Assembly (NCBI GenBank): GCA_964195905.1
Contig: CAXMQV010000005.1
Coordinates: 10,326-74,325 of the forward strand
Length of the DNA: 64,000 nt
Direction: 5' to 3'
Source of the DNA: an uncultured Gammaproteobacteria bacterium
GTDB lineage: Bacteria; Actinomycetota; Acidimicrobiia; Spongiisociales; SHLN01
How positions within the stretch are numbered: position 1 is the first letter of the stretch; every line of letters begins with the position of its first letter. Shown in pieces: positions 21,278-24,074 of this stretch. The notes beneath the pieces are model-generated. The model ran no database searches and had not been told where the DNA came from. It was given only the letters and a program-made list of their open reading frames with translations. The position numbers were made by a program, and so were the translations under genes.

Positions 21278-22834
21278 TCAGGTCAGCCGGAGCAGGCCGA
21301 CCACAACCCCGTCGGCGACCGCTTCCCACGACGCCTCGATGATGTTCTCATGGACGCCGATGGTTCCCCACGCCTCCTTGCCGTCGCTCATCTCGAGCAG
21401 AACCCGGGTGACGGCGGCCGTTCCTGCCGCCGGGTCGAGCACTCGTACCCGGTAGTCGGTGAGCCGGAGGTGCTCGACGACCGGATACGCTCCGGCCAGG
21501 GCCTGTCGAAGTGCCCTGTCGAGGGCATTGACGGGCCCGTCACCCTCGGCTGTAGCCACGACCCGCTCGCCTTGCACGTGGACTTTGATGGTCGCCTCGG
21601 CGATGACGTCGCCACCGACACGACGCTCGGTGAAGACCCGGAACGATTCCAGCTCGAAGAACGGCTGCACCCAGCCGGTCGCTTGCCGGACCAGCAACTC
21701 GAAGGTGCCGTCGGCCGCCTCGATCTGGTAGCCCCGGGTCTCTAGCTCTTTGACGGTGGCGAGGATGCTGGCTGCGGTCTCGTCGTCCAGATTCAAACCT
21801 TGCTCGCGAGCCTTGCCGAGCACGGTCGATCGGCCTGCCATTTCCGACACCACCATCCGCGTGGTGTTGCCGACCTCGGCAGGGCTGATGTGCTCATAGG
21901 CGTCGGATCGGCGGGCAAGTGCCGAGGTATGGAGCCCGGCCTTGTGGGCAAACGCCGAGGTCCCCACATACGGATGATGGGGATCCACGGTGACGTTGAC
22001 GAGGTCGGCAATGAGATGCGAGATGGTGGTGAGCCGGGTGAGCCGTTCCTTCGGTATCGCGTCGATCCCGAGCTTGAGAACGAGGTCGGGCAGAACCGTG
22101 CACAAGTCGGCGTTCCCGGTGCGCTCGCCGTAGCCGTTGATACAGCCTTGCACCTGGGTCACACCGGCCTCAACCGCCGCCAGGGTATTGGCGACGGCGC
22201 ACCCCGAGTCGTTGTGGGTGTGGATGCCGAGGACGGCCGCAGGCACCGCTGCTCTGGCGGCCGCGACGGCTGCGGCGATGGAGGACGGGAGGCCGCCCCC
22301 GTTCGTGTCGCACAGGATGACCCGCTCGGCGCCTGCTTCCGTGGCGGCGGCCACCACCTGGAGCGCGTATTCGGGGCTGTGAGTGAATCCGTCGAAGAAG
22401 TGCTCGGCGTCGAGGAACACCCGCTTGCCCTCCGAGCGCAGGAAGGTGACCGTGTCGGTGACCATGGCAAGGCCTTCTTCGAGCGTGGTACGGAGCGCCT
22501 CGGTCACGTGGTAGTCCCATGACTTGCCGACCACACAGATCACCTCGGTGTTGGCGTCGAGCAGTGCCTGCAGCTGAGGATCCGACGCCGCCTCGATGCC
22601 GGCCCGGCGGGTGGAACCGAACGCCACGAGCGTGGAGAGGTCGAGATCGAGTTCTTTTTCGGCCCGGATGAAGAACTCGGTGTCCTTGGGGAGTGCGCCC
22701 GGCCAGCCACCTTCGATGTAATGGACTCCCAACTCGTCGAGAAGGACGGCGATGCGCAGCTTCTCCTCCACCGTCAGGCTGATGCCCTCCCGCTGGGTTC
22801 CGTCGCGCAGGGTGGTGTCATAGATCTCGACCAT
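21278..22834 (-). CDS. cimA: Citramalate synthase (LeuA-related, CimA-type)
   Basis: MVEIYDTTLRDGTQREGISLTVEEKLRIAVLLDELGVHYIEGGWPG, HTHND, and a C-terminal LeuA-dimer-like domain. ATG 22834 is preceded by SD aaggaggaggg; the ORF extension to 22888 is rejected. Confidence 0.78.
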   Translation of the reverse strand: MVEIYDTTLRDGTQREGISLTVEEKLRIAVLLDELGVHYIEGGWPGALPKDTEFFIRAEKELDLDLSTLVAFGSTRRAGIEAASDPQLQALLDANTEVICVVGKSWDYHVTEALRTTLEEGLAMVTDTVTFLRSEGKRVFLDAEHFFDGFTHSPEYALQVVAAATEAGAERVILCDTNGGGLPSSIAAAVAAARAAVPAAVLGIHTHNDSGCAVANTLAAVEAGVTQVQGCINGYGERTGNADLCTVLPDLVLKLGIDAIPKERLTRLTTISHLIADLVNVTVDPHHPYVGTSAFAHKAGLHTSALARRSDAYEHISPAEVGNTTRMVVSEMAGRSTVLGKAREQGLNLDDETAASILATVKELETRGYQIEAADGTFELLVRQATGWVQPFFELESFRVFTERRVGGDVIAEATIKVHVQGERVVATAEGDGPVNALDRALRQALAGAYPVVEHLRLTDYRVRVLDPAAGTAAVTRVLLEMSDGKEAWGTIGVHENIIEASWEAVADGVVVGLLRLT

Positions 22835-22851
22835 CCCTCCTCCTTTCAATG

Positions 22852-22877
22852 AAAAACCCTCCGGGTTTTCCGAAGGG
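22852..22877 (-). terminator. Intrinsic-terminator-like hairpin + U5 inside the cimA 5' leader (candidate attenuator)
   Basis: The minus strand reads cccuucgg-aaaac-ccggaggg-uuuuu (8 bp with one G.U). It ends 5 nt before the cimA SD. Confidence 0.55.
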
Positions 22878-22906
22878 CAGGGGCGCATACGTCGGCGACG
22901 TATGCG

Positions 22907-22936
22907 CTAGGTAATGAGGATCTGGGTCTTGGCCAC
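22907..22936 (-). CDS. Candidate leaderless leader peptide M-A-K-T-Q-I-L-I-T
   Basis: gtg gcc aag acc cag atc ctc att acc tag. The GTG lies 6 nt after the candidate -10, and the TAG abuts the hairpin gcgcatacgtc-gcc-gacgtatgcgc (22883-22907). Confidence 0.4.
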   Translation of the reverse strand: MAKTQILIT

Positions 22937-22942
22937 GGGTGC

Positions 22943-22971
22943 AGTTTGGTGGGAGCGCGGGAGTAAGTCAA
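22943..22971 (-). promoter_or_regulatory. Candidate promoter for the cimA leader
   Basis: -35 TTGACT (22971-22966), 17-nt spacer, -10 CAAACT (22948-22943) on the minus strand. Confidence 0.4.
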
Positions 22972-22977
22972 TACGCA

Positions 22978-23044
22978 GTTCACAGTTCACAGTTCACAGC
23001 CGGAACCTGCGGCGATAACTGCTGACTGTCAACTGTCAACAGTT
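22978..23044. repeat. Heptamer inverted pair GTTCACA x3 / CTGTCAA x2 with a 25-nt spacer
   Basis: Left arm 22978-22998, right arm 23024-23044. Pairing leaves one C.C mismatch per heptamer. The spacer starts gccggaac, as does the spacer at 3348. Confidence 0.85.
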
Positions 23045-23090: not shown

Positions 23091-24074
23091 ATGCCAAAAC
23101 AAGTCGTCTTCTCTGGTATTCAGCCGACCGGTGACATCCACATCGGCAACTACCTCGGCGCTCTGCGCAACTGGGTGCGTCTTCAGGATGAGTACGAGAC
23201 CATCTACTGCGTTGTCGACCTGCATGCATTGACCGTCCCGCAGGATCCTGCCGTATTCGAGAAGGACCGCTTGGAGGCGGCCAAGATGGTGATGGCGGCC
23301 GGGGTTGACCCGACCACGTCGTCGTTCTATTACCAGAGCCAGGTGCCCCAGCACACCGAATTGTCCTGGATCCTCGGCACTCTCACCCAGCTCGGGTCGC
23401 TCAATCGGATGACCCAGTTCAAGGACAAGTCAGATCGGGTGGGAGCCAATCTCGGTCTGTATTCCTATCCCGTACTGATGGCGGCCGACATCCTCATCCA
23501 CCACGCCCACAAGGTACCGGTGGGCGAAGATCAGACTCAGCATCTCGAGCTCGCCCGCGACCTGGCCGAGCGGTTCAACCGGCGTTACGGCGATGAGTTC
23601 CCGGTCCCGGAAGGCATCATCCCCGAGCATGGCGCCCGCATCATGTCTCTGCAGGACCCCACCTCGAAGATGTCCAAATCCGACCCGAATCAGGGGAGCC
23701 GGATTCTCCTACTCGATGGGCCCGACGTCGTCCGCAAGAAGGTAGGGCGGGCCGTGACAGACTCGGGCACCGGGATCGAGTATGACTGGGAGAAGAAGCC
23801 CGGCATCACCAACTTGCTCGAGATCCTGGCGCTCTTCCAGGACACACCGGTCGAGACGCTGGCTGAGGAGCACCACGACAAGCAGTACGGGGCGTTCAAG
23901 CAACTCGTGGCCGAGGCCGTCGTCGACGGTTTGGCGCCGATCCGTTCCGCCTACAGCGTCCTCGAGGATGAAGAGGTATCGCGCCTCATGAACAAGGGCG
24001 CCCTCGACGCCCGCTCAAGCGCGGAGAAGTATCAAGTCGGCGTGAGGCAGAAGGTTGGGTTGACGGGGCACTAG
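23091..24074 (+). CDS. trpS: Tryptophan--tRNA ligase
   Basis: VFSGIQPTGDIHIGNYLGA (HIGH region) and KMSKS. Confidence 0.95.
   Translation: MPKQVVFSGIQPTGDIHIGNYLGALRNWVRLQDEYETIYCVVDLHALTVPQDPAVFEKDRLEAAKMVMAAGVDPTTSSFYYQSQVPQHTELSWILGTLTQLGSLNRMTQFKDKSDRVGANLGLYSYPVLMAADILIHHAHKVPVGEDQTQHLELARDLAERFNRRYGDEFPVPEGIIPEHGARIMSLQDPTSKMSKSDPNQGSRILLLDGPDVVRKKVGRAVTDSGTGIEYDWEKKPGITNLLEILALFQDTPVETLAEEHHDKQYGAFKQLVAEAVVDGLAPIRSAYSVLEDEEVSRLMNKGALDARSSAEKYQVGVRQKVGLTGH

Follow-up and report, generated by a model that had tools for sequence, protein, structure and literature searches.

How could a ribosome that translates only nine codons control an intrinsic terminator when no alternative pairing of the RNA competes with that terminator? 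This question is posed by the region upstream of cimA, the citramalate synthase gene, in a 64,000-nucleotide (nt) stretch of contig CAXMQV010000005.1 (GenBank assembly GCA_964195905.1) from an uncultured bacterium that the GTDB places in the Spongiisociales of the Acidimicrobiia (Actinomycetota). This whole stretch is the window of the account below, and all coordinates without a contig name are positions in it. Between a promoter-like pair of hexamers and cimA lie a short upstream open reading frame (uORF) with isoleucine codons near its end, a hairpin (H1) that begins in the stop codon of that frame, and a predicted intrinsic terminator (T) a few nucleotides farther on. From comparative sequence analysis we think it likely, with good confidence, that the module is an isoleucine-specific leader-peptide attenuator of cimA transcription that works through the position of a ribosome, and its uORF is probably leaderless. 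The elements, all on the minus strand, are the following.

22966 to 22971, minus strand: -35 hexamer TTGACT; 24 of 30 order-level relatives have a TTGAC-like hexamer in this position.
22943 to 22948, minus strand: -10 hexamer CAAACT; its A2 and T6 are kept, and it is identical in 6 congeners.
22907 to 22936, minus strand: leader open reading frame (ORF), GTG to TAG, encoding MAKTQILIT; every relative has its start and stop in frame.
22883 to 22907, minus strand: hairpin H1, 11 base pairs (bp), loop GCC; compensatory changes in 10 of 11 pairs (63 sequences).
22879 to 22882, minus strand: spacer CCCU between H1 and T; 1-8 nt in 62 homologues.
22852 to 22878, minus strand: predicted intrinsic terminator T, with the stem GCCCUUCGG/CCGGAGGGU (22878-22856) and a U-tract (22855-22852).
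22835 to 22846, minus strand: cimA Shine-Dalgarno (SD) region AAAGGAGGAGGG, from reading of the sequence.
21278 to 22834, minus strand: cimA, encoding a citramalate synthase of 518 amino acids (TIGR00977), the gene under the proposed regulation.

The earlier note on this locus, made from the letters of the window, had described the two promoter hexamers, a GTG 6 nt after the -10, the peptide MAKTQILIT, an 11-bp hairpin fused to its stop codon and a terminator just before the SD of cimA, and on re-reading each of these proved exact to the base. The two hexamers are 17 nt apart, and the sequence GCACCC (6 nt) separates CAAACT from the uORF, which reads GTG GCC AAG ACC CAG ATC CTC ATT ACC TAG, with its isoleucine codons at 22921-22919 (ATC) and 22915-22913 (ATT) and its stop at 22909-22907. 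The first pair of H1 is made with the G of this TAG, and at the DNA level H1 is a perfect palindrome in the window. The hairpin of T consists of 9 pairs and is GC-rich, and the 5 nt CAUUG lie between its U-tract and the cimA ribosome-binding site. The ATG of cimA is at 22834, and its product scores 684 bits against a cut-off of 450 for TIGR00977 in a profile search. The neighboring trpS (TIGR00233) is divergent from cimA, with its start at 23091, and therefore H1 and T belong to a 5′ leader and not to the end of a gene. The 121-nt leader folds with an energy of -52.2 kcal/mol (z = -4.5), and none of 200 shuffled versions folds equally well. A scan of the window for consensus promoters did not call the promoter of the cimA leader, because CAAACT agrees with TATAAT at only three of six positions. 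What supports the promoter is that its hexamers are conserved among relatives. Rfam covariance models run against 2 kb of the window gave no relevant match at E-values up to 10, and among seven homologous loci the sole Rfam hit was a sub-threshold one to Phe_leader, at 28.6 bits against a gathering score of 55. Taken alone, the window suggests such a module; it is the comparison with homologous sequences that puts it beyond chance.

When 40 related genomes were searched with the CimA protein as query, 30 loci emerged, drawn from the genus itself, from its family and from another eleven families of the order. After orienting, all 30 present the same layout: a TTGAC-like -35, a spacer of about 17 nt (exactly 17 nt in 24 of the loci), an NANNCT-like -10 (CATACT, TAGACT and similar forms elsewhere in the order), and a start codon 5-11 nt on; then an ORF of 7-14 codons that closes with two to five isoleucine codons, one more codon and the stop; and finally a GC-clamped hairpin fused to the stop, followed by a terminator with its U-tract. 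Conservation of the uORF upstream of cimA orthologues, which the earlier note had offered as a check, is thus seen throughout the order-level set, always in an isoleucine-rich form. A covariance model (R1) built from 27 order-level leaders matches 63 of 100 cimA loci, in each case on the cimA strand and upstream of cimA; its carriers among the Actinomycetes include Pedococcus, Kribbella, Actinoplanes, Nonomuraea, Acrocarpospora, Streptomyces and Sporichthyaceae. In an even sample of the phylum the model finds matches in 78 of 301 genomes, belonging to 62 of 199 genera. At many of the loci that R1 does not match, cimA lies inside an operon behind ilvE, and at one locus of this arrangement (L086) the module is located 1.2 kb upstream. 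T precedes cimA by 100-270 nt in many lineages.

Both hairpins show strong covariation. In an alignment of 63 sequences, 18 of the 20 pairs of H1 and T have changed on both sides, and T by itself shows compensatory changes in 8 of 9 pairs, with 98.4% of its cells paired. Standard pairs occupy 93.9% of all cells, a share that falls to 34-57% if the partner columns are displaced by 1-3 positions, and the covariation score is 0.606, as against 0.06-0.16; no shuffle equalled any observed measure. The alignment was fitted to the covariance model, which favors the structure, yet the margin is wide. Both helices contain many G-U pairs, and the loop of H1 ranges from 3 to about 60 nt. The G-U pairs, along with the covariation, therefore indicate RNA helices formed on the cimA strand. 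Two other readings of these segments were tried and rejected: H1 as a DNA operator, in view of its free covariation, variable loop length and G-U pairs, and the SD-like 3′ arm of T (GGAGGG) as a ribosome site, as Ilumatobacteraceae-type loci carry GGGCGGC.

The pattern of codons likewise indicates coding-type conservation of the uORF. The two codons that adjoin H1 have near-invariant first and second bases, with A in 54-57 and T in 57-59 of 61 sequences, and a third base that is a mix of C and T (22/39 and 28/34); the next codon is free, and the stop follows. Over 62 leaders isoleucine is encoded by ATC 151 times, ATT 94 times and ATA 9 times, and the stop is TAG in 41, TGA in 19 and TAA in 2. 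Among members of the genus, Leu, Gly, Val, Asn or Ile can occupy the middle of the I-L-I triplet, and there is wide variation in the last residue of the peptide. The conserved sensor would therefore be isoleucine alone; leucine and threonine, considered as co-sensors, were rejected as neither position is conserved. Hence, of the joint Ile/Leu/Thr sensor that the earlier note had proposed, the isoleucine codons stand, and the leucine, replaced within the genus, and the threonine, at a variable position, do not.

The same comparison bears on how the uORF is translated. An SD-like sequence precedes its start in only 1 of 30 order-level leaders, and the gap from the -10 to the start codon, 6 nt in the window, is 5-11 nt with a mode of 8-9 nt in the 30 relatives. 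In the window the uORF would begin at the first base of the transcript, with a predicted transcription start site (TSS) at or beside G22936. In most relatives, the gap of 8-9 nt implies a 5′ untranslated region (UTR) of 0-4 nt, with 1-3 nt as a narrower estimate. Leaderless translation is thus a well-supported prediction, but the strictly leaderless ORF of the original reading fits the window exactly and would give way to a short 5′ UTR in most of its relatives.

The elements are further bound together by a constrained geometry. The last isoleucine codon ends 5-8 nt before the first pair of H1 in all 62 sequences, and 5-6 nt before it in 56 of them, and the stop codon stands at the base of H1 in 53 sequences and inside H1 in the other 9. 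This fixed spacing, with the stop at or inside H1, means that a ribosome waiting at isoleucine would spare H1, whereas one that completes the ORF would open it. The constant of the geometry, as far as it can be read from the alignments, is the fate of H1 as set by the position of the ribosome, not the position of the stop codon. If the leading edge of a ribosome is assumed, in line with general toeprinting results, to lie about 12 nt past the first base of the A-site codon, a stall at the last isoleucine codon would melt at most 3-4 bp of H1, and a stall at the earlier isoleucine codons would melt none.

The nine leaders with the stop inside H1 (L058, L061, L062, L067, L070, L083, L087, L095 and L100; Nonomuraea, Acrocarpospora, Symbioplanes, Streptomyces and others) form a variant in their own right. 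The stop codon at the base of H1 is replaced by a sense codon (AGG, TCG or TGG), and the ORF crosses the 5′ arm of H1 to reach a TGA or TAG in or beyond the loop. The resulting peptides end in ..LIIGRRAG or ..LIIRTSRAG, and the distance from isoleucine to H1 is the same as in the other leaders. In the Streptomyces variant H1 is enlarged to about 70-77 nt.

A sister module in the same genome bears on the role of the codons. The sole other R1 match in that genome lies outside the window, at C85:5677-5770 (E = 0.11), and corresponds to a leader reading ATG TCC ACA CTC ACC TAC ATC CTC GTA CTC AGA TAG (MSTLTYILVLR). Its stop runs into an H1-like hairpin next to a terminator, 24 nt before ilvB, the gene for an acetolactate synthase of 571 amino acids, which is in turn followed by ilvN and a true leuA (657 bits). 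Leaders of the same H1-T type precede ilvB in four relatives (L118-L121, found as second R1 hits), and their peptides, MNHTPSTLVILID, MKTRPTAELVLILIV, MTTTSFVLILM and MPSILVLP, carry mixed Ile/Leu/Val codons. When the whole genome (2.7 Mb) was scanned for a stop codon abutting a strong hairpin with a terminator within 8 nt, four sites emerged, namely the cimA and ilvB leaders and two unrelated, coincidental ones (a gene-end terminator and an in-gene hit). The case for codons that sense supply is strongest here: the leader has isoleucine codons only where the enzyme is that of isoleucine-specific entry, and Ile/Leu/Val codons where the pathway is shared. The proposal of the earlier note, that the uORF and the terminator form a ribosome-mediated attenuator of cimA, thus draws support from conservation, covariation, the retention of the isoleucine codons, geometry and the ilvB module, all of it at the level of sequence.

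Citramalate synthase catalyzes the committed step of the pyruvate route to isoleucine. A full-length IlvA with regulatory domains was not found in the genome, which is about 90% complete; the best match to TIGR01124 (biosynthetic threonine deaminase) is a protein of 324 amino acids (C58:43431-44324, plus strand) with the catalytic part only, at 242 bits against a cut-off of 411. This points to the citramalate route as the main source of 2-oxobutyrate, and cimA is probably the main entry to isoleucine in the lineage.

With respect to the ilvB leader itself, the segment C85:5630-5800 (plus strand) has a promoter made of TTGACA, 17 nt and CATACT, with a gap of 16 nt to the ORF. Its TAG is fused to the hairpin GCGCAC..GUGCGC, after which come CCCUCCG..CGGAGGG and U6. 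With a gap of this length behind the -10, the ORF may not be leaderless.

A search for sequencing runs with RNA of the source organism found none, and the transcript data that turned up come from its relatives. The sequencing runs that contain the window are DNA metagenomes of marine sediment. A sediment metatranscriptome (run X22) holds a 206-nt RNA-derived contig of an approximately 90%-identical relative, which corresponds to 22712-22917 of the window. This contig, too sparse to define 5′ or 3′ ends, spans the 5′ end of cimA, T and H1 and ends within the isoleucine codons, and it shows read-through leader-cimA RNA in that relative.

On this basis, we propose the following sequence of events. 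The transcript would begin with the GTG or a few bases from it, and the nine-codon ORF would be translated without an SD. The RNA would fold H1, its base fused to the stop codon, and T would follow a few bases on, right before the cimA ribosome-binding site. With ample Ile-tRNA, the ribosome would reach the stop and unwind the 5′ arm of H1, and T would end most transcripts; with Ile-tRNA in short supply, the ribosome would wait at the isoleucine codons, H1 would stay folded, and more polymerases would reach cimA. The TSS, translation of the uORF, termination at T, the isoleucine response and, most of all, the opposition of H1 to T are what we infer here. Physiology and geometry together imply that an intact H1 stands for read-through and an opened H1 for termination, and since H1 and T share no bases, their antagonism must arise in the transcription complex.

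For this last step, our preference, held tentatively and at somewhat less than an even chance, is steric exclusion by the folded H1. Termination would require the base of T deep in the RNA exit channel of the polymerase, where a rigid, GC-clamped H1 positioned 1-8 nt upstream could not follow; once H1 is melted by the ribosome, the slack so gained would allow T to complete. H1 may double as a pause hairpin and so leave a 70S ribosome time for loading at the leaderless 5′ end. In a wider form, which we consider possible but rather doubtful, the module would be a distinct design in which a non-overlapping H1 blocks T by adjacency (through exclusion from the exit channel, a ribosome parked against T, or both), and cimA and ilvB would share this logic of control in much of the Actinomycetota.

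The need for an explanation of this kind comes from a feature of classical attenuators that the module fails to display. It has end-product codons near the end of the ORF, a predicted terminator before the gene, and codons so placed that different segments are masked, and it lacks an alternative pairing that overlaps the terminator. Partition-function folding was applied to 55 leaders, from the start of the uORF to the end of T, with the RNA free, with the last isoleucine codon in the A site, and with a ribosome at the stop (+12 or +15). A classical antiterminator was rejected, as masked folding of these leaders yielded no competitor to T, and the cost of forbidding T is 14-26 kcal/mol in every state. 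Arms compared by eye, the 3′ arm of H1 against T and the uORF against T, never showed complementarity of more than 4 bp. The earlier note had also failed to find a convincing antiterminator pairing, and that result is borne out across the 55 leaders, so that the missing antiterminator is a property of the family and not an oversight. In the minimum free energy (MFE) fold of the window, GAUCCUC of the uORF pairs with GAGGAGG of the cimA ribosome-binding site. MFE folds of 37 full leaders gave no consistent uORF-SD stem, and the idea that the uORF and the cimA ribosome-binding site close the leader as a stem, in the style of the LEU element of actinobacterial leuA, was rejected, since that stem is present in the window fold and not conserved.

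Several observations weigh against attenuation as we read it. The absence of an overlapping antiterminator in all modeled ribosome states is joined by the persistence of T, whose pairing probability stays at about 0.7 or more in almost every state, the sole exception being one leader (L026) with 0.12-0.18 when the ribosome is at the stop; by the thermodynamics of free RNA, as modeled, T should always form. We know of no precedent for the steric relationship suggested between H1 and T. A loose energy criterion places a predicted hairpin within 8 nt upstream of 57 of 181 terminator-like sites in the same GC-rich genome and so does not set the H1-T arrangement apart. In the window itself the -10 is weak by consensus and the peptide has only two isoleucine codons, and three oligo-dT metatranscriptomes hold only low-depth contigs of approximately 90%-identical relatives. 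Finally, mutation of the candidate regulatory codons in the ilvB leader of Streptomyces coelicolor had no effect (reported in PMC1262725), which suggests that actinobacterial leaders are not always classical.

Of the explanations that compete with steric exclusion by H1, the one that fares best makes the stalled ribosome itself the antiterminator, with H1 acting only as a pause hairpin and a collapsible spacer; we regard it as unlikely. A folded H1 would hold the ribosome a few nucleotides from the 5′ arm of T, such that polymerase and ribosome could not both fit if T folds, and a ribosome at the stop would unfold H1, freeing about 15-18 nt of slack in which T could fold. The geometry set out above (isoleucine codons 5-8 nt before H1, only 1-8 nt between H1 and T, and a stop at the base of H1 or within it) suits this account equally. 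It is also favored by the time that a leaderless ORF needs for 70S loading, with H1 as the only structure able to pause the polymerase, and by the lack of an RNA antiterminator in the 55 leaders. However, a ribosome at the first isoleucine codon of the run would end about 3 nt short of H1, which leaves its contact with T indirect, and a conserved pause consensus after H1 was not identified. On sequence this account and a steric model with H1 alone look the same.

Less probable by far is that T is a constitutive, leaky terminator and that the isoleucine-dependent output is post-transcriptional, with a stalled ribosome either shielding the mRNA from 5′-end-dependent decay, as in the stabilization conferred by erm leaders, or freeing the cimA ribosome-binding site from the uORF. 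RNases that depend on the 5′ end are present in actinobacteria, T forms in all modeled states, and the pairing of GAUCCUC with GAGGAGG in the window would supply the contact to be released. Yet this pairing is not kept within the genus, where CUC becomes GGU, GUU, AAC or AUC, and where 100-270 nt separate T from cimA, as in many lineages, T is too far away to act on the ribosome-binding site. Nor would this account explain why the stop is so strictly placed at H1 or within it and why H1 and T are adjacent. An untranslated uORF, with H1 or an AUYAUY motif as a protein or ligand site controlling T or with the H1 palindrome as a repressor site, is very improbable: the perfect DNA palindrome in the window and the lack of an RNA antiterminator would agree with it, but the sequence of H1 and the length of its loop (3 to about 60 nt) are free to vary, and compensatory changes and G-U pairs accompany this variation, as expected of an RNA helix and not of a sequence-specific site. 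The uORF displays 3-nt periodicity and synonymous C/T wobble, its start near the -10 and its stop are in frame in all 62 sequences, Leu and Val codons enter in the ilvB copy, and there is no Rfam match.

The attenuator that we propose for cimA shares the basic logic of the textbook enterobacterial systems (ilvL of ilvGMEDA, ivbL, thrL, trpL and hisL), in which end-product codons report the supply of charged tRNA to an intrinsic terminator. Those systems combine SD-led ORFs of 14-32 codons with 1:2, 2:3 and 3:4 pairings, whereas the cimA module has 7-14 codons, is predicted to be leaderless and has no competing pairing. A closer relative is the ilvB1NC leader of Mycobacterium tuberculosis, where SEnd-seq, ribosome profiling and an LVVI-to-AAAA mutation validated an attenuator governed by ribosome position (PMC13236596). 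It too is actinobacterial, with branched-chain codons (LVVI) near the end of its uORF, a structure right after the stop that is masked by the terminating ribosome, and a Rho-independent terminator with a U-tract, and stalling leads to read-through (PMC13236596). However, its antiterminator and terminator are mutually exclusive folds and it controls ilvB1 through a multivalent sensor (PMC13236596), while H1 and T coexist in every model and the sensor of cimA would be isoleucine alone.

The probable leaderless character also has parallels. In Streptomyces lividans TK24, TSS mapping identified eight leaderless leader peptides, including ilvL, leuL1/2 and trpL1/2, none of them on cimA (PMC8079986). 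In these leaders and in that of Corynebacterium glutamicum ilvBNC, an ORF without an SD lies at or within one base of the TSS ahead of amino-acid biosynthesis genes and is followed by hairpins, often with a U-tract (PMC8079986, PMC11857589). The ilvBNC leader differs in having three overlapping hairpins, namely an anti-antiterminator, an antiterminator and a terminator (PMC11857589), where cimA has two that are adjacent and non-overlapping. Actinobacterial leaders "with missing components" were described by Seliverstov et al. in 2005, in a study that did not treat cimA (PMC1262725). The LEU element of leuA reported there likewise places a run of cognate codons in a leader ORF before a gene of the isopropylmalate/citramalate synthase family and lacks classical parts (PMC1262725). 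It has a pseudoknot, a base stem between the Leu codons and the leuA ribosome-binding site, and no clear terminator (PMC1262725), in contrast to the cimA module, which has a clear terminator and no conserved stem of that sort. A published account of a cimA leader peptide or attenuator, or of control of cimA at the RNA level, was not found in the full-text literature, a search in which few subscription journals were covered. The module would thus be a leader-peptide attenuator with an unusual layout, apparently undescribed for cimA.

The interest of this system lies in its breadth across the Actinomycetota, in the pairing of an isoleucine-only module with an Ile/Leu/Val module, and in the proposed control of a terminator by a non-overlapping hairpin. 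A probable isoleucine-specific sensor on cimA beside a multivalent one on ilvB in the same cells provides a natural pair for the study of codon-set specificity. An adjacency switch, if true, might explain the earlier actinobacterial attenuators with "missing parts," and as a compact part of 85 nt the module could serve as an isoleucine-responsive switch in actinobacterial engineering.

Two further observations concern the surroundings and the distribution of the module. Just upstream of the -35 in the window there are perfect heptamer tandem repeats on the minus strand, GTGAACT (3.4 copies) and GTTGACA (2.3 copies), at 22976-22999 and 23025-23040, and five relatives (L002, L009, L014, L017 and L019) have other heptamers at the same place, for example CTTACTG, CGACCGG, CTTCCGT and CTGCCGT. 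A typical module, with the peptide MLSITVIIA, a TAG, H1 and T, is also present in a record titled "MAG: Bifidobacterium breve" (L110; MAG, metagenome-assembled genome). The sample series of that record is otherwise environmental-looking, the runs that contain the locus are freshwater or unlabelled, and the species label may be wrong.

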